A DNA stretch of 40,131 bases from Nemertoderma westbladi (GCA_032718475.1 JAUCBJ010001974.1:1-40131); one strand, 5' to 3'. Shown: positions 6,606 through 33,012, counted from the first letter of the stretch. Numbers and translations are program-made. The notes: generated by a model not told the origin, from the letters alone.

Positions 6606-6853
6606 GAATACCGGTATGCTTATAGTATATATATAAGTATTATTACAGACTAGATTTGTCACAGAGTACCGGTATATAATTTTAGCACAAATATATAAAT
6701 ATATAATAGGCCTATCGTGAATACCGGTATGCAGCTTACACTTATAGTATATATAAGTATAATTATGAACTAGAATTGATTACAGAATACCGGTATGATT
6801 TCAGCCCAAATTTATAGAAATAAATATAATAAGCCTATGGTAAATACCGGTAT
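6606..6853. repeat. ~118-bp duplicated unit with five TACCGGTA palindromes in the family A leader
   Basis: TACCGGTA at ~6609, 6667, 6723, 6788, 6846. About one unit is present in the paralog at 32810-32945. Confidence 0.75.
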
Positions 6854-7899: not shown

Positions 7900-8099
7900 T
7901 GTGGCAACCCGCATACATAACACATGTAATATACAGTCCCGAAACTTTGTTATTACGGTTGCCTAGCAACCCTAGAGATTGAGTCTAGGCCCACCTACAT
8001 AATGGTACAACAGGACTGCAGTATGCCATCAGCGATCGCTCGAACTTGAATCCGAGTTTTTCATACGGTTTTATTTCGTGGCTAGACGCCATCTCCACA
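7900..8099 (+). repeat. Gypsy 5' LTR
   Basis: Identical to 12034-12233 except one base seen by eye (GAAACT vs GAAACA). Confidence 0.97.
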
Positions 8100-8100
8100 A

Positions 8101-8114
8101 TGGTGACCCAGCGT
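8101..8114 (+). promoter_or_regulatory. Primer-binding site, tRNA-Trp-like
   Basis: TGGTGACCC starts 1 nt after the LTR and is complementary to the ...GGGUCACCA end of eukaryotic tRNA-Trp; the match degrades after 9 nt. Confidence 0.7.
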
Positions 8115-8205
8115 CTCAGGACGAACTCTTGAGACCGCGACTCGCAACACGCAGACACGATCCTGCAAGCAAACTGGAACTGCCACCGAAACTGTGTTGA
8201 CGACA

Positions 8206-8910
8206 ATGGCCGAAGCGACCGCCAACGCCGTTTCTATTAAACTGCCTCCGTTCTGGACCACCCAACCCGAGGTGTGGTTCGCCCAGGCGGAGGCGCAGTT
8301 CCACATTCGTAGCATCACCGAGGATGCTACAAAATATTATTACGTGGTGGGGGCCCTCGACCAGGAGACAGCCGCTCGCCTCCTAAAACTCATCCGGAAC
8401 CCTCCCGCTACTGAGAAGTACCTCAAACTCAAGGGCCAACTTCTCAAATCCTTCGGGCTCTCCCGACGCGAGCGCGCAGCCCGACTCTGGGACCTCGACG
8501 GCCTCGGTGACCGGCGCCCCTCGCAACTCCTCGGAGAAATGCAGGCGCTCCTCGGCGACGACAACGCGGGACTCCTCTTCGAGGAGGCCTTCCTCCGGCA
8601 GATGCCCGCCGCAATCCGCCTCCAACTCGCGGAGGAGGACTTCCGCGACCTCGACAGGGTTGCGGACCGGGCCGACGCGCTGTGGGAGGCCTCCCGGCAG
8701 ACCTCACTCGCGGCCCACGCCGTCAGGAAACCGATGCCGGTCCCGCCGCAGCGAACCGGCAAGAACACCTCGTCGGCGTCGACTCCCGCCCCGCGGGCCC
8801 CGAACTCGAACCCGGACTGGTGCTATTATCACCAGACGTTCGGCCCCACAGCCAGGAAGTGCCGCCCGCCCTGCAGTTACCAGGGAAACGCCCCGGCCGG
8901 CCGTTTGTAG
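8206..8910 (+). CDS. gag: Gypsy Gag
   Basis: First ATG at 8206; KLPPFW...[10 protein letters not shown]-terminus; atypical knuckle [19 protein letters not shown]. Confidence 0.92.
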
Positions 8911-8928
8911 CAGCTGCAACGGCCGGCC
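8883..8928 (+). promoter_or_regulatory. -1 programmed ribosomal frameshift signal
   Basis: G_GGA_AAC in the gag frame (8883-8889), 5-nt spacer, stem GGCCGGCCGTT/AACGGCCGGCC (8895-8928). Pol is in the -1 frame. Confidence 0.88.
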
Positions 8929-11900
8929 ACACCGACCTGCTGCTGTTTGCCTGGGACCGCGTTTCCGGGCAACGCTTCTTGGTCGACACCGGGGCGGAGG
9001 TGAGCGTTATTCCCGCGATGACTCGCGAGGAACGTTCGGGACAGAGCGGGCCGCCCCTCCTCGCCGCCAACCAAACGTACATTCGAACGTACGGCGACCG
9101 CTCCGTCAAACTCGACTTCCACTCCCGCTGGTTCCAGTGGAAGTTTATCGCGGCCGACGTCGCCCAGCCTCTCCTCGGTGCCGACTTCCTCCGAGCGAAC
9201 AACATGTTGGTCGACCTGAGAGGCCGTTGTCTGGTCGACGCCGAGACGTTGACCTCGATCCCGTGCGGGCGGACTACGGGCCACGCCCCCCACCTCGGTT
9301 CGGTCACCGCCTCGGACGACGAGTTCGCTCGGCTCCTCGCCGAGTTCCCCGATATTAAAATCCCTCGGTTCTCCGACCCCACCGCGAAACACGGGGTCGA
9401 ACATTACATCCCCACCGAGGGACCCCCGGTCTACTCCCGCGCCCGCCGTCTGCCTCCAGACAAACTCGAGATCGCGCGGGACGAGTTCCGGAAGATGGAG
9501 GAGATGGGGATCATCCGCCGGTCCAACAGTCCCTGGGCGTCGCCCCTCCACATGGCCCCTAAACCCTCGGGTGGATGGCGGCCGTGTGGCGACTACCGAC
9601 GCCTCAACGACGCCACGACTCCGGACCGGTACCCCATCCCCCATATCCAGGACTTCTCCTCCAGACTGGCTGGGGCGAAGATCTTTTCTAAGATCGATCT
9701 GGTGCGCGGCTACCACCAGATCCCCGTAACCGAGGCCGACATCGCCAAGACCGCGGTTATAACCCCGTTCGGCCTGTTTGAATTCCTTTGAATGCCGTTC
9801 GGGCTGAAGAACGCGGCCCAGGCCTTCCAGAGACTGATGGACACGGTGTGCCAGGGACTCGACTTCCTCTTCGTCTACCTAGACGACGTCCTCGTCGCGA
9901 GTCGGTCCCCCAAGGAACACCGTGACCACCTCCGTCAGCTCTTCATGTGCCTCCAAGAGCACGGCCTCGTGATCAACCTCGCCAAGTGCGAGTTCGGTCG
10001 GTCGACCATCGACTTCCTCGGCCACCGAATCTCGGCCCACGGCGCCGTCCCGCTCCCCGACAAGGTCGCCGCCATCCGGGAGTTCACCCAGCCGACCACC
10101 GTCAAGGGCCTGCAGGAGTTCGTGGGGATGGTGAACTTCTATCATCGGTTCGTCCCCGCGGCCGCCGCCATCATGCGGCCCCTCTACGCGGCCCTTGCCG
10201 GTAAACCCAAGTCCCTCGACTGGACCCCCGACATGGCGGCGGCGTTCCGGAACGCCAAGGAAGCCCTCGCCAACGCCACGATGCTCGCCCACCCCAACGC
10301 CAACGCACCGACAGCACTCACCGTGGACGCATCCGGCACGGCGGTGGGCGCCGTTCTAGAACAGCTCGTCGGCGACTCGTGGCGCCCCCTGGCGTTCTTC
10401 AGCCGCCAACTTCGACCCCCGGAGGTGAAGTACAGCGCGTTCGACCGGGAACTCCTCGCGCTATACCTCGCTGTTCGCCACTTCCGGTACTACCTGGAGG
10501 GCCGCGTATTCACCGCCTACACAGACCACAAACCCCTGACGTTCGCATTCGCCAAGATCAGCGACCCGTGGTCGAATCGGCAACAACGACACATCGCCTA
10601 CATTTCCGAGTTTACCACGGCGATCAAACACGTCGCCGGCAAAGACAACTGTGTGGCGGATGCGCTCTCCAGGACTACCGTCAGCGCGGTTCGAACCCTC
10701 CTCACCGGCCTCGACTACACGGCTATGGCGGCTGCCCAACTCGCCGACCCCGAGCTGCCAACCTACCGCTCCGCCGTGTCCGGCCTCCAACTGGAAGACG
10801 TCCCGCTTGGCTCCGCCAACGCCACTCTACTTTGCGACGTTTCTCTCGGACGCTCGCGCCCCGTCGTCCCCGTCGCCTGGCGACGGCGCGTTTTCGACGC
10901 CCTACACGGCCTGTCTCACCCCGGCGCTCGTACCACCAAGAAACTCGTCGCCGACAGGTTCGTGTGGCACGGCCTCCGCAAAGAGGTGGGCGAGTGGGCG
11001 AAGACCTGCGTCCCTTGCCAGTCTTCCAAGGTGCAACGGCACGTCCGCGCGCCCCTCGGCACCTTCGCCAACCCCCACCGCCGGTTCGACCACATCCACG
11101 TGGATCTGGTCGGCCCTCTACCACCATCGCGCGGGTTCACTCACCTGCTAACGATGGTAGACCGGTTCACTCGGTGGCCAGAGGCCGCGCCTCTCAACCA
11201 GACCTCCACCGAGACTTGCGCCCGGGCTCTCATCTCCAACTGGATATCTCGGTTCGGCGTCCCCGCGGATCTCTCCTCCGACCGCGGTTCGCAGTTTACC
11301 TCCCAGCTCTGGTCCGCCGTCAACCAGCTGCTGGGCACCCAACTGCACCGCACCACGGCCTACCACCTGCAGGCGAACGGACTGGTGGAACGTTTCCACC
11401 GCCACCTAAAGTCCGCCCTGCGGGTCGACGAGTTGCCGTGGGTCCTCCTCGGAATCCGGACCGCTCCCAAGGATGACTTGGGGACCTCCTCCGCCGAGCT
11501 GGTCTACGGTGCCCCCCTCACCGTCCCGGGCGAGTTCCTTCCGCCGGCTACAGGCGCCCAGCACTCGCCGTCTACGATCCTCCCCCAACTCCGGGATACG
11601 GTCGGGCGGTTCGCTCCGGTACCGACGTCACGCCACGGATTGACTCCGTCGTCGGTTCCACCGGACCTCCACGACGCTACCTACGTTTTCGTCCGGCGCG
11701 ACGCCCACCGGACGCCATTCGAACGCCCCTACGAGGGGCCTTACAAGGTCCTCACCCCCGGACCCAAAACATTTAAGATCGAGATGGGCGGTCGAACTGA
11801 AACGATTTCAGTCGACCGACTCAAACCGGCCCATCTCGATTTTGCCGAGCCGGTCGTCCTCGGCCAACCGCGGCGCCGAGGTCGACCCCCGAACACACCT

Positions 11901-12008
11901 CCGGTACCTCCTACACCGCCGGTACTAACGCAAAGACCACCAACCCCAGCCCAACCGCCCGTACAAACTCGATCGGGCCGGACGGTCCGTCCACCCGAAT
12001 ATCTATAA
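8886..12008 (+). pseudogene. pol: Gypsy Pol (PR-RT-RH-IN) with one in-frame TGA at 9789-9791
   Basis: LVDTGA; GLFEFL*MPFGLKNA; YLDD; DASG and YSAFDRELLA; H-x3-H...CVPC; DLVGP, DRGSQF, VERFHR. Confidence 0.95.
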
Positions 12009-12022
12009 TACGTTTCGAGACT

Positions 12023-12030
12023 GGGGGGGG
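12023..12030 (+). promoter_or_regulatory. Gypsy polypurine tract
   Basis: G8 run 3 nt before the 3' LTR. Confidence 0.85.
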
Positions 12031-12033
12031 TCA

Positions 12034-12233
12034 TGTGGCAACCCGCATACATAACACATGTAATATACAGTCCCGAAACATTGTTATTACGGTTGCCTAG
12101 CAACCCTAGAGATTGAGTCTAGGCCCACCTACATAATGGTACAACAGGACTGCAGTATGCCATCAGCGATCGCTCGAACTTGAATCCGAGTTTTTCATAC
12201 GGTTTTATTTCGTGGCTAGACGCCATCTCCACA
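12034..12233 (+). repeat. Gypsy 3' LTR
   Basis: Direct repeat of 7900-8099. Confidence 0.97.
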
Positions 12234-12237
12234 ATGT

Positions 12238-14477: not shown

Positions 14478-15803
14478 TTAAACATCACTTTCTGTAATTG
14501 GGCCTACTGTACTTTGTTTCAGAACTTCATAGGCAAGATCATTTTGGTTTGACTCAGTTAAAGCACGAGCGAACACACGGAAATCTTCAAATGATTTCTT
14601 CTTCATCATTTCAATTAGCTTAATATTTTTGTCTCGTCGTGTTCTGCATCTTCTGACCCTGTCGCATTCCAGCAAATCCAATACACCTCTTTGCTCGAGA
14701 ATAATAAGTAACACGCGGACTTCCATATACTCTGCCAACAAGGTTGTTAGGTTTGTTATAATTTCAACATGGGTTCTATTCTCATGAGCTGGAACCACCA
14801 GATCACTAACCAACCTCCCTGACTCCCCTTCAAGTTCTTTAGACTCCCTGTTTTCACCAGCTGTTGCACGATAGCGTGACTTTCTCGGTAGAGGCACTGG
14901 TGGGAGGACCGATGGACTAATAGTAAACTCCGCTGACCACGTTCCTTCTCCACTATTATTCCTGAGACGATCCACCCCCAATTCCTCAAATTCCCTGTTT
15001 TTACTTGCACCTGCAACATTTTTCGACATCCTCGGTGCTGCCACCGGTGGGCGCCCCGTTTGACTACTAATAAACCCCCATGACCCTGTTCCTTGTCCAC
15101 TATTATTCCTGAGACGATCCACGTCCAATTCCTCAAATCCCCTGTTTTTACTAGCACCTGCAACATTTTTCGATATCCTCGGTGCTGGCACCGGTGGAAG
15201 CACCGGTGCATGCGTCCAACTACTACCATGTGTATGCTGTACCGGCACCGGTGGAGAGGACGGTGGGTGCGCCAAACTACTAATACGTGATAGCCTCGGT
15301 GGAGACGACGGTGGGTTCGCCAAATTACAGTTTCCAGTCTGTTGCAGTTTCCCCAGTGGGTGTTCTCTTCCATTCCAAGTGGGATCATTTACAAGCGTAC
15401 AATTCAATTGAGATTGATCTTTGTCGATTTGGTTGAGTGCATCATAGAACTTATCAACATCGTCATGGTTATGAAATCCAATTACATAGGAGTTAATATT
15501 TTCTATGTTTACCCAATATGGGAAGTGTATGGGTAATGGAAATGGGTATGGGTAAACACCAGCGCGTATTGTAGTCTTTTGCTGTGGACCGCATTGTACA
15601 ATTTTTCCTTCGTTGGACGTATATATTTTGTTATTGAACGTATATAGTTTGCTCCAACACAGGGACATTGTTCTTTCATCAAAGGAAATCGCAAATTTTG
15701 AATTTTGGTAATCGCGTCTAATTTCGATAGCAACCTTGCCCATTTCATTAAGAGCAACAATTCCTTTCACTCTATCCGAAAGGGTACATGAATGGGAGGC
15801 CAT
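14478..15803 (-). CDS. Intronless protein: EVH1/PH-like N-terminus (tentative), proline-rich 49-aa repeats, C-terminal CARD/death-fold domain
   Basis: Intact ORF from ATG 15803. C-terminus LAEYMEVRVLLIILEQRGVL...TRRDKNIKLIEMMKKKSFEDFRVFARALTESNQNDLAYEV fits the CARD pattern. IGFHNHDDVDKFYDAL resembles the terminal strand-helix of EVH1. PPVPAPR repeats are 147 bp apart. Confidence 0.72.
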   Translation of the reverse strand: MASHSCTLSDRVKGIVALNEMGKVAIEIRRDYQNSKFAISFDERTMSLCWSKLYTFNNKIYTSNEGKIVQCGPQQKTTIRAGVYPYPFPLPIHFPYWVNIENINSYVIGFHNHDDVDKFYDALNQIDKDQSQLNCTLVNDPTWNGREHPLGKLQQTGNCNLANPPSSPPRLSRISSLAHPPSSPPVPVQHTHGSSWTHAPVLPPVPAPRISKNVAGASKNRGFEELDVDRLRNNSGQGTGSWGFISSQTGRPPVAAPRMSKNVAGASKNREFEELGVDRLRNNSGEGTWSAEFTISPSVLPPVPLPRKSRYRATAGENRESKELEGESGRLVSDLVVPAHENRTHVEIITNLTTLLAEYMEVRVLLIILEQRGVLDLLECDRVRRCRTRRDKNIKLIEMMKKKSFEDFRVFARALTESNQNDLAYEVLKQSTVGPITESDV

Positions 15804-15828
15804 AGCGTTGATATACACCAAAGTTAAT

Positions 15829-15996: not shown

Positions 15997-16747
15997 GTAC
16001 TGTACAATGTTTCGAATATTTTTAAATATAATTATCAAAATTTAAGATAAAAACTAACATCAATCAATTACAAAAAATTCTAGAACAATGGAATATGTGT
16101 TACAATGTTACTCACTGTAGTTGGTGTAATTATCAGATCCACTTTATTAGATTGTGCAGACCCAGACTACAAAAATACGTTTACAACATCCATGGTGGTC
16201 CAGCCCAGACTCAAAATTATGACGAAAAGTCATACGTGTTAAGTTAACTTTATAAGTAACAACAATGTAAGTTGAATTAAATGTAGTTATTACTGATTTT
16301 ATAAATGGTAAAATATCTGACATGCTGCCACACATGACCACCATACAGGCTGAGTGGTTTCTACTGTCCTTGCGCTTGTTTTGTTTTGTTATTGGTTATA
16401 ATATCTAGGTTACATGTGGTATAGGGCATAAGTAGGCATACAGTACTCCCTGTATTGTATAGGGCGTACATAGAGTATAACATACAGACTAACATGTGTT
16501 TATGGTATTTACAAATGATGCACTACTCATGATGCGTCTAGGCGGCCATCTTCCCTATGCTTGGTTGTGCCAAAAGTGGACGTGCAGAAATACACATGTT
16601 TAGGAGTTTGCAGTATATTTACAGTTTACAAGACTTATCAAACAGATTTACCAAAATAGTTTCAACAAGAAACAAGTAACTAAACGAAGTTGCAAGTCAA
16701 GTGACAATAAGTGAATGTGTAAGTGATAACCGAAGGCAAACCAGCCC

Positions 16748-16885
16748 TTTATATACTAAATCTAGGACATAGAATCCCCTAGAACCTTCCAGAGTATTCC
16801 ATGGCCTCACATTGGAGCAATAAGATGTTCTATGCCCTATGATTGGCCCAACTCATCGTTCCATGTGTTGTACGCACCTCATTGG
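16748..16885 (-). promoter_or_regulatory. Pol II promoter-like cluster (three CCAAT + TATA)
   Basis: Minus-strand CCAAT at 16885, 16846 and 16815; TATATAAA at 16755-16748. Confidence 0.45.
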
Positions 16886-16933
16886 TTTATCAATTTGTAC
16901 CAAATGAAAATAAATTGCCCCAAAATGCAAATT

Positions 16934-17004
16934 TCCCGACCGGGATTCGAACTCGTAACCTATCTGTAATGCAACCAACGCCTTAACCATCTGACCACTA
17001 TGCC
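16934..17004 (-). pseudogene. tRNA-derived sequence (SINE head or tRNA-like module of a repeat)
   Basis: A box TGGTCAGATGG and B box GAGTTCGAATCC at tRNA spacing; acceptor and anticodon stems do not pair cleanly. Confidence 0.7.
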
Positions 17005-17667
17005 TTGAGATTAACTACGGGTTTTATGTGTACTAATATGAATAGGCATATTACATTACTGTAACTTAATCCAAATGCGTCGGATTTTAGAAAGTTTTTA
17101 CGTTAAACTACAAATGCTATCTTATAGTGAAATAATCCATCACCGCTCCATGAAAACAGTAAGTAAGACTGTTTTCACCAATCGAAATATAAACTATTTA
17201 CAAAATACTTCTAAATCTACTGGTGGGGCCTAAAATATATAATAATCACTACCTAATTATTGCATACTTAATATTGCAGGTACGGCGTAAATACAATCCA
17301 TCATACATACAAAATACAAATTTACCAATTAACTTTAGTGCATAAAATACAAAAAAAGGCTTTCGGTTATCAATATAAGCAAATTAAACAAATCAGAACA
17401 AAACAAATCAGAACAAATCAAACAAATAATTTTAAATCTTTCAATAAGCTTTATATATTGCAAATATACATAATAAACTTCACCAAATTAAATCAGTCTT
17501 AAATATAGAATAAACATAATACGCTAATATCTTCCAAGTAAGTCTTAAAGTGTCCTCCTGACGATCTTAAAAGTTCGTCCTGCTGGTCTGGATATCTTCT
17601 CCTGAGCACTAATTGCTAACGGTAGGCTCGCAAGCCTTCCTTCTCTATCTCGCTCCTCCAAAACCAA

Positions 17668-17768
17668 TGTCCAATATAAAATACCCAAATATAATATCCA
17701 AATATAAATATCCAATATAAATATCCAATATAAACATCCAAATAAAATATCCGAATATAATATCCAAT
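17668..17768. repeat. Degenerate ~13-bp minisatellite (ATATCCAATATAA)n between two copies of the 20-bp motif
   Basis: About 7 units read directly. Confidence 0.85.
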
Positions 17769-17804
17769 CGGTAGGCTCGCAAGCCTTCCTTTCTTCTCGC
17801 TCTC

Positions 17805-20800
17805 CTATTCCTTGGCCGAACGGGCTCGTCCACGTCCTCTAGTACGATTGGGTGGTGGTCGAGATCGAACTGAGCTCGGACTTCGGTGTCGAGTTGTCGG
17901 TGGTTCCAAAACGCTAGGAAAGGGGACGACGGGAGTTTCGCACATCCGTCGTGCACTCAGTCCTCTAAATCCTCGTCCGATTCCAATCGTTGGCTTAACG
18001 TCAGATCGAGTCTCCACAACGCTGGGAGGAAGTCGAAAGGGTGGGACTGTTCTGTCCGCTGACACCTCGCTCTCTGATGTCGTTTGGATCCTAATGGGTT
18101 CCGGCAAAGCGTATCCTGTCCCTCCGTGTGGTTCTCTAGCGAGGGAAACCATGCCCCGAGTCATCTGGATTTGCGACTTCGATGTCGTCCTCTCGGCGAC
18201 ATTTACTACTTTCTTTATCTCTTGTCCGGCCTTCTGGGCTCTAAGTATACGAAGTTGCGGATCATCCTGTGGGTGACGCGTCTTTTCGGCTAACGGCGTG
18301 GCCTTGAAACCAGTCTCACGCAAAACGTCGGTCTCGTCTAGAATACACGAGGTTACGCATTTGTGATAAAATGCGCTCCTGTATGCCCAAGCTATCGAAT
18401 GCCAGGCTCCTCGATTCCGCTGTTCGACTCGCAATTTGTCGAATTCCCCGGCGGTAATCTTGTTCGCCACAGTTTGAAAGTTCCAAGTGTTCTTGTTGTT
18501 GGGGTGTACCTGTAGAAAGTAGTCCCGCACAACCTTAAATCCGCTATCCAGTGGCAATATATCCAGCACCTCCAAGAGCTCATCGTATTGAGGCATAGCT
18601 GACACGTATCCTTCGTTATTATGAGAGGGTTTACGGCCCAAAATCCCAAGTGTGCTCTCATAGGGAAACGGCGTCGCTGTGTCAATACATGCTCGTCTGC
18701 TAGATTCTCCCAATGGTCGAATAGCTGGCGAATGATTTTAACTGACATGTGCTCATAGGGGACGTCCCTAAGTTGACATTCGGATGCCCTATGACCTTTA
18801 ATATTACAATACGTGCACTGCGCCACGAAACGCCAGCAAGTGTAGAAAGTGTGCGAACGCTGATCCCCGCACCAGTTACATACTAAGTCCGGTAGAGATA
18901 TGTGTTTCGCTCCCATTTCTTTGCGTGGTGGCCAGTTGCCCCGCATCTGCCACAAATAGTGTTGGCAGGGTACCAAACTCGCTCATAGATAAGATCTCCG
19001 ATGGGGCGAGCGTTACCATCCACGTGATAATTCTCACAATCCGGGTCAGTCAGTATGTTCGTCTCCGTAGGTTGTACACAAACCATGGCATCGCTTTTCT
19101 CCAACTCGCGTATCTCAGTTCACGTCTTCCTTGGAAGGTTCTCCTCTATCTCTATGAGTTGCCGCAACGGTTCGTCTATTATCGCAAACTCGGTCGGATC
19201 CATATCGTCGTGATGGGTAGTAGGCTCATGAGCCTTCCAGGCCTTTGAATTCCGCGTGGCATTCCCCGTTGTAGGGTACTAACATTAACATCGACGGTCT
19301 GTCGACTAGGCTTCCCGCGTGAGTGAGAAAGACCTCCCTGAAAATGCTAAGTTCCGCTCGTGTGAAAACTTCGCAGTGCGCATCGGTGTTGTAAAAGGGT
19401 TGGAGAAATCGTCGGAATACATCAGTATGTGTCCTTCCTCCGTCGTAAAAGGTATGTCCTTCACCGAGACATAACGGATGTCGCTTTAGAGTCCTAGACA
19501 CTACATCGGCGATGAAGCAAACGTTGACCGAAGATTCTATCACCAAATAGTATTGCAAGATTATTCATGGAGGTGAAGTAATCGCCCAGTACACGCAACC
19601 TCGCCACTTTAGCTGTGACTCGAACTTGTTTACGCCGGGGGTATCTCCCTCTCCGTATACGTCCATGTATTTGCTCCTCTTACTCTCCTTATAATCCCAA
19701 CTGAATATTAGGTATGAGATATAACCCGTCCCAGTTTTTAGAGTGTTATACTCCCTAAAATATCCTTGCTCAATAGCCCAAAGCAACAATGGTCTAGTAT
19801 CCACGTATGGCGTAGGCAATCGATCATCTTCCATGGGCATTCCTGTGAAATCGCTAATAAGGTCATCCCGTACACCGGATCCGATCTTGACGATGCTCTT
19901 GTCAAGCACAACATCTCGTACAGCCTTTGGCAACATCCTAGCTTCTATGCTACAAGCCAGGTCCATGGATTTAACTATCCATTTTATCATCGCGTGTCTT
20001 TGCGTCGTTCCTTCCGGCATAGGCATCTTTCTATTGCTCCTCTGTCGGCTGAAGACATGTAACACGCCATCTGGTGCTCGAATCTGTATGGTCTTCGAAG
20101 TGAGGCTTTGCTGATGGCTTCCTCCTTCATTATCGTAAAACATATAACCCTAAATAAAGACTACTAAATATAAAATATATTCTCCTTCAGAGATCGGCTA
20201 GTCACGTCCCAATCGTCGAGTAAATCGTTGGTAGGGTTCCAAATTCTCCCTATGGACTTTTCATCATCGAAACTAATAGGTTTACTGGTCCAATTGGTCG
20301 CAATATCAGTGTCGGTCTCAAACGTTCCGACTCCAATCCATAATCGAATCGTTTTCGTCAGATATCCTCGCAAGATACAAGGTGCGATATCTGTCCCCGC
20401 ACGATCCACTTCCTTAAATTCCGTAATATGTGGAGGCACATTGCGTACGATTTTCTGAACTATTGTTCTACACAATTCGGCTGACTCTAACACATCACCA
20501 AAGGTAACCGATGGGAGGAAATCCAGGTTCGAAATGATCTCCGGGTGTTCAACTATAGGAATCTCATAAGTTGTCTCCTCTCGGGTCGGTATACTAATAG
20601 GAAAGCTGGTTGGTCTCACGACCGGTACTATCGCTTTAGTAGGATGGGGCTGAGATTCTCGCGTCATCTCGACATGAGGTATCTGTAGTCTCTGCGACAA
20701 ACGCTGAGCAAAGGTGATACTATCGAAGAGCTCGGGTGTCATCTCCTTAGGTTCAGTTTGATCATGGGATATCCAATAAAATGGTAGGCTCGTGAGCCTT

Positions 20801-21603
20801 CCGCCGAACTCCTCGATCTCGCCTTTCTCGCACGCCTTGTACGCCCTGTAGAGGCTCAAAGCTTCCCGTTTCTCTTGCGTCGACTTATTAGACTCGTCCA
20901 CTATCATGCTGTAGACGTCTGGTTCGACTAATTTGGGTTCGTAAATAACGATCTCACCCGCGTTCGGTCCACTCATCTTAAACGAATGGTACGGATTCGT
21001 CAAAGGGTATCCGCCTTCTTGGTAACATAGACTTTGGTGGTATGAGCATCGCGCTAATATCGGCTCGGGGTTCTCCGAGTTCAATCGCATAGGAATCGCG
21101 TTGTCTTGCTCGCGCATACATGCTCCACATTTGTAAAATAGTTTGTATATGGAGAACGCGTCCTTTGTCTCTGGATCCGCTCCTCGAGCGCGTCTATAAA
21201 GATGCATTCCATCGAATTCGTCCCTAGCTGCAGGCAAGGGTTCGTTTACCGTCAAATATTGCAGCGTATGATATAATCGGCGTATGTCTGTGTCTGGATC
21301 CTCGCAAATGTCACTGGCGTCGCATAACGCATCGTAGGGATACAACGCATTGAACTCCGCGTGTAATTCCTCCGCTCTTTTGTTATAAGCATCCAATTGC
21401 TGTCGCGTAACATTCGGGTCCGCCTTGTCTTTAGCGAGCTTGGCTGTACTCCTAGCCATACTCTCCACTCCAAACACACTAAAGTTTTTAGCTCCATAAC
21501 GATTAAACGGCGCCTGGTGCTCCTGTTCCTGCGTAAACCCCTGACGTAACTCCTTATAAATCTTCTCCGCCATTATATACGCGTATATATGGTTACATAT
21601 CAT
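17805..21603 (-). pseudogene. Accessory gene (~1250 codons): unknown N-terminus, DEDDy/WRN-like 3'-5' exonuclease, 3 CCHC knuckles, basic/Pro-rich tail; disrupted
   Basis: Abutting minus-strand ORFs join via a 56-nt GT-AG intron (20205-20150), in-frame TGAs (19567-19565, ~19120) and single-base frameshifts (~19245, ~18914, ~18630). Motifs: YMFYDNEG, TIQIRAPDGVLHVF, LPKAVRDVVLDKSIVKIGSGVRDD, YVD; CGRCGATGHHAKK(C), CNWCGDQRSHTFYTC, CTYCNIKGHRASEC. Confidence 0.7.
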
Positions 21604-22264
21604 TACATTTCTACTAGATGAAGCACAAAATAGAGGTTAGATGTGAGGTGACTTAGAGTTTGTCGGCTTTTGGCTCAACTTTGCTCTAAAACCCCAACCC
21701 ATTTGCCTAATGACTTCGGGTTCGCGTGATTTCGCACTGGCTCCTAATCCAAAAAATTGTGCTGATAAAAAACGAATTCCGGGTAAACTAGCCACAAGTC
21801 TAAAATACTCACCTTTTAATTTCCCAAACTACATTCCCAAAGAAATAATGCAGTCGAGAATTAATTCGGTCTAAATAATAGTAGACACGACTACGTAGAA
21901 CAAGGCCGGTTTTCTTTTCCAAAAAAAATTTATCGGTAGGCTCGCAAGCCTTCCATCCGCTCTTGTCCTCCCCAATTTTAATTTTTATCTAGCTGTATTC
22001 TAGAATTCGCATTCACTGGAGAATCATTTTTCTTAAATTTAAATCCAACTAAATGGATTTGTCTAATAATTTTTGAAAAATTGTCTCACTTGTGGGTTCC
22101 AAGTGGAATTCCATTCCTACTGTACACACAATCCCGCTCCTATGTGATACATAAGGGTACTACCCTCCATGTTCACATATAAAGACAATGGAATTCCACC
22201 GCTGTCTCTATCTACTGTGAAGAGGATTACAAATGCACATACAGTAATACAAAATACCAAATTA

Positions 22265-23530
22265 CTAAAATAAGGTAAGTCTATGTGGAGATTTGTAGTC
22301 TCCTGTCTCGTTTCTAGTCTCCTCAAGGAGTATGAGACGTTGTACAGGTCTGTCTACGGTACATCCGTCGATAGTCCTTACAGTAACTGTCCTTACTACA
22401 CCAGTGGTCAAAATGACTCCAGTCAGCCAAAACCGTCTTTTCAGATCGGCTTCAGCCAATAAAACATGGTCACCGCGTCTCAAACATCGGGTATTAAGAT
22501 ACCAAGAGGTTCTGGTCGAAATAGAGGGCAAATAATACTTCTGCCATATTTCCCAGAATTTACATGCAAGTAGCTGAGTGATTTTCCAAGCTTTGTTGCC
22601 GTATCCGTCGCTATTAACGGGTACCGAAATGGGCAACAATGTCGTCGGCGCCTGCATAAGCAGGTGCGCTGGTGTCAAGGCAAACTGTGCGTCGTTATTG
22701 TCTGGGATCAAAGCGATCGGTCTAGTGTTCAAAATCGCTTCGATTTCTATTAACAATGTCGTCAGTTGGTCGTCTGTCAAGATGTGTTGCGTCGGTATTA
22801 ATTTAGCCATAGCTGTCTTGATTGAGCCAATCAGCCTTTCCCAAACGCCGCCTCTCCACGGACTGTCTGGAGTGTTAAAGTTCCAAACAATATGGTGAGG
22901 ACGTAGTTCCTCGGAAATCTGGTTTTGGTCCAACTTTCTTAAAGCTCTGGTTATTTCATTCCGTGCACCCACAAAGTTTGTCCCTTGGTCACAGTAAATG
23001 GATTTGACCAATCCACGTCTAGCGATAAATGGCCGTAAGGCTAGGATAAAGGCATTGGTGGTCAAGTCTGTCACATGCTCAATATGGACAGCTCTGCTGG
23101 CCATGCAAGTGAAGATTAATCCCCAACGTTTTACTTGTACCCTTCCGCGTTTCTCGATTATAGGTCCAAAACAGTCTATCCCTGTCTCAGTGAGAGGGGG
23201 TCTAAATGCCTGTATTCTCGCTAGTGGTAGTTCAATCATTTCTTGGTGTCCTATCCACGCGTGCACCTTCTTACAAATCATACAGTTCCGTGTTACCGAA
23301 CTCAGTGCCTTGCTAGGCCTAATCAGTACGAATCTCGTGCGTAAGTGTGATAAACAGTGATGTCTACCTACGTGTTTGAGTCGTACATGTGCGTCCAGTA
23401 TCATAGCGCGCTGTAACTCATGGTGTTGCGGTATGATGATAGGATACCTAAAGTCAAGTGCAAAGTCGATGTTTTGGAGTCTGAACTTGTGACAAAGTAA
23501 GCCCCTATAAATAATCGGACTCCAACTCAA
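22265..23530 (-). pseudogene. pol: BEL/Pao integrase
   Basis: HVRLKH...CMIC, GIDCFGP, FTCMASRAVH, CDQGTNF, WRGGVWERLI, RPVQRLILLE. Confidence 0.95.
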
Positions 23531-24114
23531 AATCGGTGAAGACTTGATCTGTTTACCTTGGTTGATCGCTGTGAATTCTCATGCGAAATATCGCAATTGA
23601 GAATGGCGAATGATATCAACTTCACAATGACCAACTTCCTTTAAGGTAAGTCTTCTAGGAAAGTCGCGTTTGCCTCTGGCATATTGTCTCAAACGTTTGA
23701 GCCATGCTAACTTGCGGCATGATCTAGTTAGGTTTACTATCCTGTCAACGTAAGTGTTAGTGACGTCATCAGGTAAGGTATAGTCATAGTGTGGATACTT
23801 GTCTGGACTTGGTAGGCCCACGGGCCTTCTGGTAGGTTTGTCTGAGTCCCCAAGTATGTCAATCTCCACGGTCTTACCCTTACTGTCCGCACACCTAGTG
23901 AGTCGACTGGCAGTAACGGTTTAAACTCTACAGTGTTAGTGTGTTCCTGTGAGCCTGTAAGCTTCCTAACCTTAGTTACACGTTTACCTGTAGGTGGTAA
24001 GTCAAGTATTTTCTTTGAGCGGAGTGTGATCGCTGTGGCCACACCTTTGTCGTCCAATGAAGTCAAATTCGGTAAGTTTCTAATTGTCCGCTCCAATGGG
24101 TCTTCTACTGGAGT

Positions 24115-24580
24115 GTCTAGTAGACAGTCTGGTGAAGCGTCCAGTGAACAGTCTGGTGAGACGTCTGGTGAGACATAGCGCGGAACTTCCGGCGAAATGT
24201 CCTGTCATCGGTCCTAAAGAAAGTCTGGCGTAACTTCTGTCGGAAAGTCTGGTCTAAAGTCTGGTCTAAAGTCTGGTCTAAAGTCTGGTCTAAAGTCTGG
24301 TCTAAAGTGTGGTCTAAAGTCTGGTGGACAGTCTGTCGAGATGTCTGGTGGAAAGTCTGGTGAGACGTCCGGTAGACAATCTGTCGAGAGTTCCATAAAA
24401 CAATCTGGCGAACAATCCGGAGAACAATCTGGTGTCTCTTCTGGTGAATAGTCTGGCGAGTAATCTGGTGAACAATCCGGCGAAACGTCTGGTGAAATCT
24501 CCCGCGGAACATCCGGTGAAAGATTTGTACAAGCGTCTGGACGAGATTCTGGTGAGACGTCTGGCATAATGTCAGGTCTA
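24115..24580. repeat. 12-bp coding minisatellite (AAAGTCTGGTCT and variants; Pro-Asp-x-x) between RNase H and integrase
   Basis: Five perfect units at 24244-24303 within ~38 degenerate units. Confidence 0.92.
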
Positions 24581-25560
24581 GCATCCAGGTCATCAGATTT
24601 CGTCCATCCTTGTTTCCTCTTGACCTTGGCATTGGCTTTCGCTTTAGATTTGACAACCTTGTCGCTTTTTATCTCGGCACCCTCTGGTATGGTATTGGTT
24701 GTCGCGTCGAATAACGGTGGCCATTCGTCTGATGGTCGCTGTAGGAAATCGGGTCCTCTAAACCAAAATGATTTATTGTCTGGTTTACAAAAGTCAAGCG
24801 GTTGCATCCCCCGTGACGCGATGTCAGCTGGGTTCAGCTTCCCGTGACAGTGACGCCAATCTTGTTTGAGCGACCGGTCTAATATTTCAGCCCGTCTGTT
24901 GGCTACAAAAGTCTTGAACTCAAATGCTTCGTTGTTTATGTACCAAAGTACCAACGTCGCATCCGTCCAATATGTGACCTTCAAGTTAGCCTCCAGCTTG
25001 TGTTGAACTAGACTGACAATATCGGTGGATATCGTCCCGGCTTGCAGCTCTCCACGAGGTACAGTCATATACTTCAAAGGCATTGTTCTAGCCCTAGAAG
25101 TAACGAGAGACACATCGTAGCTGTCCGATGTCACTTGTCGTCTAAGGTATAAGGTAACCCCCAACCCACCCTTGCTAGCATCACTAAAGCTGTGAAGCTC
25201 TAAATCAGCAGGAAAGGTGGTCTGCAAATGAAAGTATACCCTTGGTATGGTATAGTCTTGTAGGAACGTCAGTAGGGCTTCCCAGTCCCTCCATTGCTCA
25301 GCTAACTTTTCTGGGATGGGATCGTCCCATTCCAGTCCGGCTTGCCAAATGCTGCGGAGTATGATCCTAGCATGTACGATCACTGGACTAATGAAACACA
25401 ATGGGTCATACAATCGACTCATGGTCGATAAGCAAGTCCTCTTAGTGAGAGGTCTAGTCTGGTCGTTGGACCTTACACGTACCCTAAAATTGTCGGTGTT
25501 AGGGTCCCAACTAAGTCCTAATACTTTGGTCGTAGGTAGAGGTTCTAGGTCTAAGTCCAA
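24214..25560 (-). pseudogene. pol: BEL/Pao RT thumb / RNase H region
   Basis: KVLGLSW, YDPL, FSDAS, VPRGEL, YWTDA, NPADIASRG. Confidence 0.93.
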
Positions 25561-26390
25561 GTCTCCTCCACTGCGATCAGTCGGGTCAAATGAGTCGGGT
25601 CTAGTTCGGGTTCGTTGGAAGTGAACTTCGTCAGGCGGAATCCGCCCTCAGTGAGACAATCCTGGAGTTGGTGTGCTACGGTTGTAGTGCGCTCCAAAGT
25701 GTCACAACTCTTGAGGCCGTCATCCACGTAGAAATCTCGTTCCACGGTCCGAACTACTTCTGGGTCAAATTGATCTCGTCTGTCCAATGCTGTCTGTTTT
25801 AAGGCGTACATGGTGCAGTTGGGGCTGTCCCTGGCTCCGAAAACTCTTACCTGCATTTGGTAAGTTTCTGGCGGAAGTTCTAAATTTCCGTCCGGATACC
25901 AAAGAAACCTTAAACTGTCCCTGTCCCGCTCCAAAGCCTTAACCTGGTGAAACATGGCCTCTACGTCACAGGTGAAAGCCACTTTGCGTTGTCTAAAACG
26001 CATTAGGACTCCCATGAGGTAATTATTCATATTCGGCCCATCCATCAATTCGCTGTTCATAGACATTCCTTGGTAAAGCGCAGCGCAGTCGTTGACTACA
26101 CGCACCTTGCCAGGTTTGTCCGGGTGTCGAACAAAATGATGTGGCAGGTAATATGTCTGATCTGTGGTTACCTCGGGATTTAACATCCTAATGGCGTATC
26201 CCTTTTGGAGATATGTCTAAAGTTGCGCATTGTATTGCATATGGGCCGTCTCATCTCGCAACAATCGCTGTCTTATTGATTTGAGTCGCCTCAAAGCAAG
26301 CGGGTAATTGTTAACGAGCTTAGGTTGTCCATTGCGCCACAACATGCCAACCTCGTAGTGGCCATTCGCGGTCTGGCGAATGGTATCCCT
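25551..26390 (-). pseudogene. pol: BEL/Pao reverse transcriptase
   Basis: HYEVGMLW, YYLPHH, KVRVVNDCAA, DVEAMFHQV, FGARDSP, DFYVDD; stop codon near 26218. Confidence 0.95.
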
Positions 26391-26522
26391 CATAATATTT
26401 AATATATAATAATAATATATAATATTTAATGTATAATATTTAATATTTAATAATATTTAATAATATTTAATAATATTTAATAATATTTAATAATATTTAA
26501 TAATATATACATAATATTTAAT
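26391..26522. repeat. AT microsatellite expansion (TAATATTTAA)n interrupting pol
   Basis: CATAATATTTAAT at 26391 and 26510; 119 extra bp; removal restores KWSLNIMRDTIRQ. Confidence 0.9.
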
Positions 26523-29500
26523 GACCATTTCATTAATGACCCAGGTTCTGCTGAGTCCTGTTCTAACCATTGAATGTTCCATTCAGTCAGCAGTCGGTCA
26601 AGCGCTGCTTGCACTGCGCCATGGTCCTTGTCCACGTCTTCGTCCGCTGCGGTGGCTAGTGAGGCCAATGTGTCTGGTAGGCTCGCAAGCCTTCTGGTGT
26701 CACTAGTCGGCGTCGAATCGTCGTACGGCGGTTTGACAACTTCTTTATCTGTCGGTAGGCTCGCAAGCCTTCCAAGATCAACGACCGGTGTCGAAGCCTG
26801 GTGGGTGGGGTCAATGACCTTCGGATTTTTCGGTAGGCTCGCAAGCCTTCCAAAATCCTCATTCATCGAGTCATCCACAGCAACAACCCTTTGGTCTTCG
26901 GTAGTCAATACAACCTGGTTTACAGCAAGTAGTTGTAAGTCAGAGGTCCGTGTGGTTGTGTCCAGATCAGTTACGTCAGTATCGGTTACGTCTGCGTTAG
27001 CGACGCAAGTCTGTCGTAGTGCAGTATGTACAATTGGACCACAGGAGTGTGAAGGATAATTATCTATCGTGTTAGTCAGTAAACTACACGTACTCAAAAC
27101 GTCGTCCTCCTGGTCACTTACCTCTAGTGAACGTACTGGTGCTCTAGTATACCAACCTATGGGAGTTCTACATGCGTAGGGGTTGCCCGCTGTAATAACA
27201 GATGGGCGTGTCTCCCATACCTGATGTAAGTTAAACTGGTCTGTCCCAATTAACATCGCGATTGAACGATAATTAACAGGACATTCCGGTATTCCAAGGT
27301 GTCGGAAATACTTGCGATCTTCCGGTGATTGCTCTGGCACAGGGCCGAGCAAGTTACTAAAGTCCTTCATAGCTGCAAAGGTTAAATTTCTTACTGGAAG
27401 TAATGAGCGCTCTTCCTTGCTGTGTTCCGCTTTGGAAAGAAGAGTGTCTAAGGTTAGTTTTACTCTCGTCACTGGGATCGCTCTCTTACCATGCATGCTG
27501 CTTACAGTAACTGAGCAGTCTTACCTTGACTCATGTCCGTAACCACGTCGGCTACTTGTTCGTCGACATAACTATGCAATGACGCAGAGTCTAAGATAGC
27601 GTATATACGCTTGCTCCCTCGGGTTCCGGTAATCTTTATAGGAATCACGCTAAACCCTTTCAATTGGTTCTGTGTGAGGAGTGTTACCGATGGCTGTTCC
27701 TCCCCCGCATGCACATAAAATGTGTCGTCTTCCTCCTCGTCCTCGTCCGATGATCCCGATTGGTTCATACAATCCGCATAGAAAGTACGAATCTCTCGCG
27801 GCGCACGCTCCTTGTAAAGTACGTCGCATCTAGCCGCTTTATCTGGATGCTCTCGTCGAAAGCGTTTGGTCGGAGTATGACTGGTTGTGTGAAGTAACGC
27901 GTCATGGTTACGTCCACATAGAGAACATGTATCGTCGCTTGGGCAATCCTTCCGGACGTGTCCTGGCTTCGTACATCTCCAACAAGAATCCAAAGATCAA
28001 ATTTGAAGTCTTCTTTCTTCGATTCCTAACTCCCTAAAAGCGCGACATCCACGTAGTTTATGTCCGCTATGGTTCCTGCCGTTCCGCTCGCAGTATGAGC
28101 ATCCCACAAAGTCCACTGGCAACTGTTGTTGTGGCTGAACTAGTTGTCAGAACTTTAGAAGTCTCAGTAGAGGTGGCATAGGTAACGGCTTTCGCGCTCG
28201 TCAGAAGTGGTTTAGTCCGAGTCGGCGCAGAAATAGCTATCCCTTCTGCCGCGATATGGTGATCAGTGTAGTTCGATCAAGTCTCTATGACGGCCTCCCG
28301 CGAAATCAGTTAGTAGACGTCGGTGAGTTTCAGTAGACCGCCGGCCTCTTCACGCTGGTACTCGATGCGTCGCCATTCTCGTCGAAGTCGATGATGAAGT
28401 CTACCGATTATTCGAATGAGAACTGTCGGTGCGTTAGCGTAGTCGAGTTGTCCAATGGACCGTAAAGTCCCTATAGCGTTCTTTATTTCGTCCGCGAGTC
28501 GTAGAAGGTTGATAGGTTTCGAAATGCTGCCTCCTCTGCAGAGGTCTTCGATAATGGATTTAGCCATGGCGACGTTGCCACCATAAATCGAATATAGACG
28601 GTCATATGCCAACTCAAAGGCATCTGGAACACCGATGAAGGTTTCCGCTAATCGTTTCGGCTCACCAGACAGGACTTGTAGGAAGTAATTAAACTTCTCC
28701 GTCGAGGTGAAAGCACACATAGCGATCTGGGACTCTACGTAGTCTACCAGTGTACGCCAGTGTTTTGCGTTGCCAGAGAACTTCGGCGGTTGTTGTGCCG
28801 GTAATCCGTGTCTAGCCGCGAATTTTGCAATCTCGCTAACTAAATCCAACTGTCCGCGTCCCTGTTCGGTTGCGTCGTCCAGTCGTTCCCTTCCACGCGT
28901 TGTTCGTCGGTAGGAAATATTAATGGGATCTTCTTTTCGATGGTTCGGAGTCTGTCTAGTCTCCTGTTCTCTCCTTGGTGGTCGATGTTGTCTAGGTTGT
29001 TCTAACTCCACGCTGGTTCGTGATCGATCCGACGGTTGCGCTTCGAGTCGCTCTTCTATCTGAGCTAGTCGGTCCGTTACAGGTCGTATTATTTCGGCGA
29101 GTCTGTTGGTGCTGATCGCTTCCACTGGTTGCAACGTGGGTTTCTGTTGGGGTGTTTCTCGTGGAGGATTGTCGATGTATGGATTCGTCGATCTCTCCTC
29201 CCGTTTGTAATCCGCTGCCGCTGCCACTCCAGTACGGAATACTTCCCGTTCCGTCGACTCCGAGTCACTGGATGAGTCGCTGTCATCCGGATAAGGTGGT
29301 TGGCGGTTTCGCGTCCGGCGTATTACTCTTTGTCTTATTTGTTGAGGTCTAGAATCTACGGTTCTCCGTCGTTCGGTAGGCTCGCAAGCCTTCCACGAAG
29401 TCGTAGGTCTCGTTAAACATTGTTCGATCCTGTGGGTACTGTCCACATCCGTCCTCCTCCGTTGTTCAGTAGGCTCGCAAGCCTTCCACGAAGTCGTAGG

Positions 29501-29587
29501 TCGCGTCGAACATTGTGTCAAAGGTCTAATAAAGCTGTCGTGTTTTGTAGTCGGTCTATAAATAACTGGGTTCGCACAGCACGTCAC
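26523..29587 (-). pseudogene. gag: Family B Gag, zinc knuckles, protease and linker (frameshifted)
   Basis: PPKFSGNAKHW...EKFNYFLQVLSGEP; CWRCTKPGHVRKDC, CSLCGRNHDALLH; AILDSAS; MLIGTD...TPIGW. Confidence 0.9.
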
Positions 29588-32500
29588 AGGTTTAACTTAT
29601 CTGTATAACACACTGGTGTTACCTTTCTCCTAGTAACGGGTTTTTCACTTACCTTACTTTCCGGTATCTTTTCTCTAGACTGTTTTAGGAGCTGTAATCT
29701 TACCTCTCCGTTTAAGAACGACATAAGATCAGCCATGGTAGGGTCTCTATGTTGTTGGTCCATCAGATAGAGAACCTTTTTGTCTCAGCGAGTACCTACT
29801 CCACTCTTTGGTAAAGTTGATGCTACGGCTCCTACAACCATAGAACTCTGGTATTCCTGAGACTTACCCAATCAGTCTAGCTGTCTACAGATCTCCTGAA
29901 TCTCATCGGAAAACTCTATAATCCCGCTGCTAAGAAACTTTCGGGCCGCTACTAATTTCGCATGCAGATATCTAGCTATGTTAGTCTTATTACCATACCT
30001 GATGTATAACGTATCCCAAACTTGTCTCAATCCATCTGGATGTGCAATAAACTTTAACGCCATTAACTTGGGAGGTCCTTCCAAGCACTCGATGAGGAAT
30101 CGTAGTTTCTCTCCACTGGATAGTACGGAGTTCTGTATGTTATCTTTGTAATATTCATTAAAAGGTAACCACTTCATCTCATCTCCATTGAACTTGACGA
30201 CCTCTCCCACCTTTACCGCTTGACGGGCTTCCGTTCTAGCCATCTGACGTGTAAAACTTTCATGAGCCATCATATTATTTAATATCGAATTATCGGTATA
30301 TAAATTTCTCAGATTATTATCAGATCAGTATGGGATATCATTATCAACAGGCTTATTAATACCCTTAATAGGGTTTACTATCGGAGTTTCTACTTCGCTA
30401 GCAGTATAGATGTATATAGGCTCCACACCTTGCGCATGAAATACTTCAGACCTAATGGGCTGACACATTGTTACAAAGGGTGGTGGTATACCCATTTGTA
30501 TATTTACTAATTTATCGTGCTCGAGAGCGATATTTTGCTGTACTTCTTGCAGCTCTAACCTACTCTCTCTCACTGTTCCCTTTAACAGCTGAACAGTCCC
30601 TTCCAATTCTCGGACTTGTTTGGAAGATTTTATCTTGTTGTCTTCGAGTTGTCCGAGCAACTGCTCCATCCCCCGTCGTCCCTTGTCCATCCACTTAACC
30701 ATGGAGGCGGGAGTATTTGCCAATGTCGTAGCTGGATGGCACATTGGGACGACGGGAGACATTGCGTTTATTATCTCTTGCTTGGCGTCCATGACTATCT
30801 GAGATTCTGGCAGTTGTCTACTGGGCACAGGTAGTTTGGTACTGTGTAAAGGGAATTTCGAGTTAGATTCTGGAAGTAAAGGGGGTTCTATCAAAGGAGT
30901 GGCTTCGCTAACAGGCCTAATTATTTCTGACTCATCTACTATAGTAGGGAGTCTTTCTACTCTTATAATTTGGGCTGTTGGCTCTCGAATACTTAAGTCT
31001 ACACTAGCTAGCTCCCTTCTCACAGCAGGGGGTAAGTTAGGTAACTTATGCCTATGAGGTGCTCTTCTATGTCCGTTTGAACGAGATTGATTACTTTTAC
31101 CTTCGGGATCAGTTGTATCACCTTTATCCGAGGAGGTAAATCCCTGTCTTCTGGGAGTAGATCGACTCAGTAGTTGCATCTGAGTAGCTGCCCTTTGTTT
31201 ATTTAAGTAATCTTGTTTCGCCTGAAGGTTCTCCAACTCTAGTTGGACTGTTGCTTCAGATGCCTTCCGTTCTGCTTCTACCACTGCCGCTGCTGCTGCT
31301 GCTTTTCTTTCAGCTTCAGCCGCTGCCCCGCCGCTGCCGCTTTTCTTTCAGCTTCTGCCGCTGCCGCCGCCGCTGCCGCTTTTCTATCAGCTTCTGCTGC
31401 TGCTGCTGCCGCTGCCTCTTTTCTTTCAGCTTCTGCTGCTGCCGCTGCCGCTGCCTCTTTCCTTTCAGCCTCTGCCACTACCGCTGCCGCTGCCACTGCT
31501 ACCTTTCGGTCTTCTATTTGTTTTTTCTTTATTTGTTCTTCTTTGTCCATTGCGATGAGAAAGCTTTCATCAAATTTAGTCTGCTTCGCGGCTAATATCT
31601 CCGCATCTAAAGAGTCCAAAATAAATTTGGCACCTTCACTATTGGGGTGAAGTCCAGCTAGCCGTCTCCTTAGCTCTTTGTCACCTATAAATCGTTGATA
31701 ATCCGACAGATAGATGTCAATAGCATCCTTCTTCTTAGGTTTTTCGGATACCGCCTTGCCTTCCACATGAGAAAAGGTTGCATCTGTTGATTCTCCGTGG
31801 GTTATGCGTTCAGTTTGCTGAACCCTCCATTGTGTTGTTCCCTGGACTTTAACATTCACTCGTTGGAACCAAGTCTTTACAGCCACTTGCAACAACGTGT
31901 CTTGACTTCTCTTCGAGGCCTCTTCAAAGGCTGAAAGGATTAACCTGATTCTCAAGATACGTTCTCTCACTTGGTAAAGCAGCTCTCCCTGCTCTTGAGG
32001 TCCCTGAGGTTGTTGAAATAATTGAATTTCTATTCTTTCCAAGGAGTTGAAGAATCCCTGGACATATCCTGCTGCTGACCTCTTCCATGCAGCGGGATCT
32101 CTGGTGTCCCTCACTACCCCCATTTGGTATAAGTCTTCCCAGGCAGCTTCCGATAAGTTAAACGGGAGTCCGGGTCCAGGGAAGTTCCATTGAGTCTCTA
32201 CAATAGACCTTAGTTCTTCCATCGGGTATCCTGCATAACTGTCCCTGGTCGATCTCTTATTTCCCATCCAATCCGCTTGATGTTCTTCTACAGCTGCAAG
32301 TACTCTAGTGAGTATGGCCCCAGGAAGAATTAGAAGTGGGTCTGGATAAACCGCTTCTTCCATCCTTGTTCCGATCTCGGGCATTAACTCTTTGGTGTCG
32401 GAACTAGAGTTACTATGCAGTTGAGAAATAAGTTCTCGGTTCGGGTACTGTTGTTGTTTTGCAGCCATCTCTTGGTCTCGCTTAACTTGAGCCCTAGTGC

Positions 32501-33012
32501 CTATAATAGACCTATGGTGCTATAGTAGCCTAGGGTCCGATACCACTACTGTAGGGATAACCTTTCTTACAGTAGGAGGGGACTTAGACTTCGATCTGGG
32601 ATGTTCCATACTTTGATCTGGGTCACAGATCGTTCTTTCTAAGAGACTAACTGACAGTGTTTGTTTTGTGTCAGACATAATTTATTTTACAGTTGAATGC
32701 CTACTACTATAATGACAGTTAAAGAAAGTCTAGGGGAAATCAGTATCAACTGTCAGTCTAGTAGTTACCGATATCGCTACTCAATGTAACGTGGTATATA
32801 TTTAATATTAGAATACCGGTATACACCTGTAGTATATATAACAGTATTATTACAGACTAGGATCAGTCACAGAATACCGGTATATAAGTTTAGCCTAATT
32901 TATATAATTATAATAAGACTTCTGCTCAATATTACACTTACCGGTAAATAAAACCAACAGAAATATGTAAGCACTAAAAGAAATAAGGGGTGTACAGGCC
33001 CTACTCTCTTAA

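Follow-up and report, generated by a model that had tools for sequence, protein, structure and literature searches.

A probable third gene with a likely DEDDy exonuclease domain and zinc knuckles in a decayed BEL/Pao retrotransposon of Nemertoderma westbladi

Introduction

Exonuclease domains of the DEDDy type have been captured independently by several kinds of selfish element, among them Terminons (PMC6431247), Dada transposons (PMC3706591) and closteroviruses, whose versions are WRN_exo genes (PMC8297929; these three sources, like PMC5408684, PMC3118150, PMC10309623 and 10.1101/2025.08.03.668247, are cited for the part of their text that was available to us). The closest described cases are the third open reading frames (ORF3s) of the bdelloid Juno and Vesta elements and of Terminons, which are of DEDDy type and have a putative activity (PMC5408684). 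An earlier note on the DNA considered here had pointed to such ORFs in both bdelloid and nematode LTR elements. The bdelloid precedent stands, in the gypsy-type Juno and Vesta (PMC5408684), but no nematode case was found in the literature searched, and neither 'nematode' nor 'BEL' occurs in the available part of PMC5408684.

For BEL/Pao elements, the ICTV profile of the Belpaoviridae gives gag, pol and env only and makes no mention of an exonuclease (PMC8742986). The word 'exonuclease' is likewise absent from the available main text of a BEL/Pao survey whose supplements could hold such elements (PMC3118150). No BEL/Pao element with an exonuclease ORF was found in the open literature that we searched, a body of work outside which Repbase reports and supplements lie.

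Here we describe a locus of Nemertoderma westbladi in which a large gene downstream of a BEL/Pao pol probably encodes such a domain. The window, meaning the whole stretch of DNA analysed, is 40,131 nt long (GCA_032718475.1 JAUCBJ010001974.1:1-40131), and the gene, also called ORF3 below, lies at 21603-17805 on the minus strand.

Results

The carrier is a decayed BEL/Pao retrotransposon

The studied locus belongs to a repeated family of BEL/Pao LTR retrotransposons, of which it is a decayed member. It occupies at least 13 kb of the minus strand, from 29596 or beyond to about 16597, with these features:

28310-29596, minus strand: gag of the studied element, 5' part missing (Pfam DUF1759, E 6e-9)
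22265-27996, minus strand: pol region (zf-CCHC, weak RVT_1, Peptidase_A17 at E 5e-39, DUF5641 at E 7e-14)
16597-17220, minus strand: candidate 3' LTR, limits uncertain (TATA-like box; tRNA-like segment with A/B boxes; terminal CA)
17622-29486, minus strand: 18-nt imperfect hairpin in 11 copies, all in element sense (invariant stem, variable 4-nt loop)

The order DUF1759, Peptidase_A17, RVT_1 (under its cut-off) and DUF5641 is that of a BEL-type gag followed by PR-RT-RH-IN, as in the Belpaoviridae. Integrase matches are BEL polyproteins as well, so that both lines of evidence agree with the BEL/Pao assignment made in the earlier note. Among the best 120 of 749 integrase relatives, identity does not exceed 42%, which makes this a distinct BEL/Pao lineage, and none has an annotated exonuclease domain.

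The 5' end of the element, where a primer-binding site would be expected, is absent, and at about 29600 gag adjoins, on its 5' side, a copy from a second BEL family, making the locus chimeric. At the opposite end, contig depth drops from repeat to flank level near 16600-16750, close to the provisional limit of the candidate 3' LTR. No LTR pair is present in the window, the candidate being without a second copy (Belpaoviridae LTRs measure 0.2-1.2 kb), and inspection by eye revealed no clear polypurine tract. Rfam returned no match over 16000-24000, and thus no hammerhead there. Repeat depth peaks at a tRNA-like segment of the candidate LTR (16940-17010, minus strand), which has A- and B-box-like motifs and may be a SINE head; neither ARAGORN nor Rfam calls it. 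A 12-nt tandem array is found at 24092-24590, inside pol between RNase H and integrase.

Several other features share the window. The second BEL family, which has a long coiled-coil gag, is represented by two minus-strand copies that are 73-88% alike: one at 2485-6836 with an internal pol deletion, and one at 29600-32920 that matches 4157-6836 and is fused to the gag of the studied element. A TTAA-ended element, probably piggyBac-like and with internal repeats of 162 nt, has copies at 947-1757 and 33001-34326. A young gypsy-type element (7900-12236, plus strand) has 203-nt LTRs that are 99.5% identical and a G+C content of 63-66%, compared to about 35-50% for the window outside it. Lastly, an intronless ORF of 449 codons (14478-15827, minus strand) carries a C-terminal CARD (E 6e-9); its N-terminal domain, judged by eye, may be EVH1/PH-like, and the proline-rich part between the two contains a 147-nt repeat.

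A single long frame with predicted splice signals follows integrase

The earlier note had joined six ORF fragments past integrase into one frame of about 1250 codons. The broken single frame and its length hold, at about 1,247 codons once a putative intron of 56 nt is left out, but the pieces number seven. The frame runs from an ATG at 21603, 661 nt past the integrase stop (22265), to a stop at 17807-17805, and has the following parts:

21614-21640, minus strand: predicted canonical splice acceptor, with branch point and pyrimidine tract, shortly before the ORF3 ATG (from sequence)
20206-21603, minus strand: ORF3 N-terminal region, 466 codons, with a Cys/His cluster (open frame)
20150-20205, minus strand: probable 56-nt GT-AG intron, phase 0 (inferred from sequence)
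19500-20149, minus strand: likely DEDDy (WRN/EXD2-type) 3'-5' exonuclease domain (ESM Atlas, ordered-block test, motif positions)
18776-18954, minus strand: three zinc knuckles (18954-18913, 18880-18836 and 18817-18776)
17805-18737, minus strand: ORF3 C-terminal region, basic, with a Pro/Arg-rich tail (open frame)

Two in-frame stops (19567-19565 and 19122), frame shifts at three places (near 19250, 18915 and 18600-18740) and one further junction (20205-20150) separate the seven pieces. The junction starts with GT and closes, after a run rich in pyrimidines, with AG; it is also the sole AT-rich 50-nt window of ORF3 and preserves phase 0. For these reasons it is probably an intron and not a lesion. 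Contig pieces from other copies have small gaps across the frame-shift regions, in line with the shifts being lesions of individual copies. Taking into account the splice signals ahead of the ATG, ORF3 is likely expressed from a spliced RNA. The earlier note had missed these signals.

Other copies of the element were examined in Logan contigs from four runs of three studies, which cover the whole stretch; one run is possibly the window's own source. The coding test used 40 of 1,008 differences, of which 25 fall in ORF3 and 24 were classifiable, one being dropped for an ambiguous frame. In the proposed frames 13 of the 24 differences were synonymous against 7.4 expected (P 0.012), while the alternative frames gave 6 and 4; once clustered sites were removed, 8 of 18 were synonymous (P 0.17). 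These differences between copies give moderate support to ORF3 as one coding gene.

The regions that flank the central domain resemble no known family: the N-terminal one had no Pfam, PHROG or usable ESM Atlas match and two NCBIfam scores far below cut-off, and the C-terminal one no match in Pfam, PHROGs or NCBIfam. A hydropathy scan of ORF3 detected no signal peptide or clear transmembrane (TM) segment, in accord with what the earlier note had said of this gene in the env position. The highest 19-residue value, 1.61, falls on the helix of the ExoIII candidate, and the six other pieces reach 0.84 at most. With the family searches added, ORF3 has none of the marks of an env, namely a signal peptide, a TM anchor and similarity to a fusogen.

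The central domain resembles WRN/EXD2-type exonucleases

Three motifs that the earlier note had likened to those of WRN, EXD2, MUT-7 and RNase D exonucleases are all present on the minus strand: YMFYDNEG (ExoI) at 20146-20123, IVKIGSGVRDD (ExoII) at 19894-19862, and LQYYLVIE (ExoIII candidate) at 19558-19535. ExoI keeps its catalytic Asp and Glu and ExoII its Asp, and the ExoII stretch mirrors the WRN sequence. The ExoIII candidate, which follows the in-frame stop at 19567-19565, reads YxxxE and not YxxxD, and ExoIII is either this atypical motif or a site a few residues further on (19516-19502). The ExoI and ExoII part of the claim is likely, on the evidence of the two methods described below, but its ExoIII part is not established.

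In the first of these methods, an unbroken 194-residue piece of ORF3 was submitted to ESM Atlas. The best three of 30 matches were eukaryotic PF01612 clusters (0.93, a score to be read against the tool's own figures, by which 4-10 in every 100 shuffled proteins attain 0.9; 173 of 256 features; recognition 2886), and 24 of the 30 belonged to the PF01612 exonuclease set. The second method used ordered blocks of a profile built from 74 bacterial EXD2/WRN-like domains, the seed protein of which matches WRN, mut-7 and EXD2 in the PDB. Five blocks, taken in order, fall on ExoI, strand 2, strand 3, ExoII and strand 5; the chain scores 21.6, of which ExoII contributes 16.6. Scores at least as high came from 3 of 1000 shuffles, from 1 of 779 tiles of the window, from 2 of 581 tiles of BEL proteins and from 1 of 90 bacterial ORFs. 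The value lies inside the range of five true distant members of the exonuclease family (15.8-46.3); the P value is optimistic, since the test was devised after a whole-domain test had failed. A chain of eight blocks was weaker (5 of 1000 shuffles), with the ExoIII block placed elsewhere than on LQYYLVIE. These results place the ExoI DxE and the ExoII Asp in the conserved strand-helix order of PF01612.

Whole-domain comparisons were less favorable. With hmmsearch --max and a 20-sequence profile, the exonuclease region ranked at the top among 798 tiles of the window, though with an E value of 3.9. Whole-domain scores under six gap settings were not significant (z -0.3 to 1.9, versus 4.9-14 for controls), and hhalign gave E 0.0074 at a probability of 5%. 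Pairwise BLASTP of the exonuclease piece aligned RNase D in the correct ExoII register (E 0.19) and returned no match to a bacterial EXD2-like protein. PF01612 did not match unbroken ORF3 pieces above the Pfam cut-off, and the exonuclease region had no match in Pfam, PHROGs, NCBIfam or PDB sequences. The same piece had no homolog in a 5.8-billion set (longer proteins), JGI metagenomes or plasmids, and its single match among 1.84 billion representatives was a spurious repeat protein. A single-sequence AlphaFold model (pLDDT 32) did not have the quality that a fold search requires. Because every alignment-based library search missed the domain and no fold was recovered, we hold the call to 'likely': on its motifs and their order, this is probably a DEDDy 3'-5' exonuclease domain of the WRN/EXD2 type.

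Of the three CCHC knuckles claimed for ORF3, two are complete and the first lacks its last ligand, at which point a frame break cuts it. The second reads CX2CX5HX4C, one residue over the CX2CX4HX4C consensus, and the third is an exact CX2CX4HX4C; zf-CCHC scores the third only, weakly and under cut-off (E 0.002).

Hairpin repeats and contig depth support a link between ORF3 and gag-pol

A 20-bp motif common to ORF3 and gag-pol had been reported in the earlier note. A search for it yields 11 matches in the element and none in 100 shuffles, and each match forms the 18-nt imperfect hairpin listed above, a property that had escaped notice. The copies lie at 17622, 17771, 19220, 20784, 21936, 23812, 26677, 26755, 26833, 29376 and 29469, and are spread over gag, pol and the spacer as well as ORF3 and the 3' region. 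There are none elsewhere in the window or in 173 other fetched loci, the exact sequence is absent from viral contigs, and no description of it came up in the literature searched. The stem is paired in 97% of cells and is kept, with one two-sided change, while the loops are of four types. Its presence in two coding frames as well as in non-coding parts points to a nucleic-acid signal. Since stem covariation amounts to one pair and does not rise above shuffles (191/500), and the z-scores for folding, from -2.6 to +0.15, are weak, a DNA site is also possible; the hairpin may be an RNA signal or a DNA-binding site, and is a candidate for either.

Contig depth remains hundreds of times above flank from integrase through ORF3 in four runs of three studies. 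In run X1 the summed depth, which according to the tool's warning is not a copy number, was 14,000-42,000 for ORF3, 17,000-32,000 for integrase and about 40 for the flank contig; in runs X2 and X3 integrase depth was about twice that of ORF3. Strand and position, a hairpin of eleven copies found only in the studied element, and this continuous high depth together support the linkage of ORF3 to gag-pol. Three runs from three studies also contain, at a few percent of local depth, a derivative without 17936-21010 (17935 joined to 21011), indicating that some copies can do without ORF3 in cis.

For comparison, we examined the best 80 of 573 metagenome BEL loci, 21 of which extend at least 1.5 kb past integrase. 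None of these loci has an ORF3 relative or an exonuclease. Where a long ORF follows integrase, it is a further BEL gag-pol in 8 loci and otherwise a DUF3504 piece or an ORF with no family assigned. In the 8 loci (L102, L106, L108, L138, L141, L148, L152 and L153), a second BEL gag lies at most about 1 kb past integrase on the same strand, reflecting either tandem copies or circular assembly.

Such loci raise the question of whether ORF3 is itself a separate repeat or passenger beside pol, or an unrelated gag-like or other protein whose likeness to exonucleases is due to chance. The missing LTR pair, the chimeric 5' side, the blank alignment-based searches and the ESM Atlas scores of shuffled proteins all leave room for this explanation, as does the fact that none of the contig pieces listed bridges integrase and ORF3. 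We nevertheless consider it unlikely: the hairpin recurs from gag to the 3' region and occurs nowhere else in the DNA examined, depth is continuous, two independent methods arrive at the same exonuclease family, and ORF3 has neither a DUF1759 nor any tblastn match under E 0.1 to the 80 BEL loci. It is likely that ORF3 is one gene, is part of the element and carries a DEDDy domain.

Discussion

A proposed role in 3'-end trimming

We propose, with a probability of roughly 0.45, that the third gene encodes a non-envelope exonuclease-knuckle protein that binds element RNA and trims 3' ends during the replication cycle. Knuckles of nucleocapsid proteins tether these proteins to genomic RNA. By this account, a spliced subgenomic RNA would yield a soluble ORF3 protein, and its knuckles would tether it to the element's genomic RNA, possibly at the eleven hairpins. 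The RNA-bound knuckles would then bring the protein into the particle, and the nuclease, working on the element's own RNP or cDNA, would trim away 3' nucleotides of cDNA or RNA that are mismatched or non-templated. Processing of 3' ends is the role proposed for the bdelloid DEDDy ORF3s (PMC5408684) and for the DEDDy domain of Dada transposons (PMC3706591). The ORF3 described here may work like the bdelloid ones. The present data do not tell 3'-end trimming from rival mechanisms.

It is possible, though doubtful, that ORF3 is an anti-silencing factor, as the earlier note had suggested, its nuclease degrading or over-trimming the small RNAs or slicer products that the host directs against the element and its knuckles giving RNA affinity. 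WRN-, mut-7- and EXD-type domains work in small-RNA pathways, and the BEL/Pao family studied is highly repeated; knuckles beside a nuclease, however, fit the binding of long single-stranded RNA equally well. A small-RNA role was also raised for DEDDy ORF3s in PMC5408684, the available part of which nonetheless reports no unambiguous link between these ORFs and copy number.

Least probable is an RNA adaptor that binds the hairpins through its exonuclease fold without cutting and exports or localises unspliced genomic RNA: the eleven same-strand hairpins with fixed stem and variable loop, the export problem that the predicted splice signals would pose for unspliced element RNA, and the atypical ExoIII favor it, as do by analogy Egalitarian, which binds a localisation signal via a 3'-5' exonuclease domain (10.1101/2025.08.03.668247), and Cer1 CERV, a spliced accessory product required for gRNA export (PMC10309623), but three catalytic acidic residues are retained, the covariation and folding results for the stem are weak, and a DNA-binding role for the motif is just as possible.

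The trimming proposal could be extended, at the price of becoming improbable, to a complex BEL/Pao retroelement in which the exonuclease-knuckle product of a doubly spliced accessory gene would read the eleven hairpins; the export or packaging of unspliced RNA would thereby be coupled to editing of 3' ends or to evasion of small RNAs.

Comparison with known systems

Like the ORF3s of Juno and Vesta, as these are described in the available text, the ORF3 studied here is exonuclease-like, lies downstream of pol in the place of env and has no TM segments (PMC5408684). Those elements are of gypsy type, whereas the carrier here is BEL/Pao, and the present gene differs from theirs in its about 1,250 codons, zinc knuckles, long flanks and probable internal intron. 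With Belpaoviridae that have an env-like third gene, the element shares a gag, the PR-RT-RH-IN order and a third gene after pol (PMC8742986; PMC3118150). It differs from them in its length of at least 13 kb, versus 4.2-10 kb for the family (PMC8742986), and in that its third gene is not env-like.

At the level of the domain, ORF3 has in common with the WRN_exo, EXD2 and mut-7 members of PF01612 the ExoI DxE, strands 2 and 3, and the helix-strand-ExoII Asp order. It departs from them in about 30 extra residues ahead of the ExoII helix, in the YxxxE of its ExoIII candidate, and in falling below Pfam detection. Terminons, Dada transposons and closteroviruses belong to other element classes, and the available parts of the sources cited for them describe neither knuckles nor dispersed hairpins. 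Cer1 CERV, a spliced accessory protein acting on its element's own RNA (PMC10309623), and Egalitarian, whose exonuclease domain binds an RNA signal (10.1101/2025.08.03.668247), are functional analogies only.

If our reading is true, enzymatic third genes extend from rotifer gypsy-type elements to the Belpaoviridae, apparently through independent capture. In the literature that we searched we found no counterpart of the fusion of nuclease and knuckles, of the probable ORF3 intron, or of a hairpin that recurs along the genome as a candidate cis-acting signal. A repeated family with both a putative protein and a putative RNA site would thus offer a tractable system in which to study the role of retroelement DEDDy nucleases.
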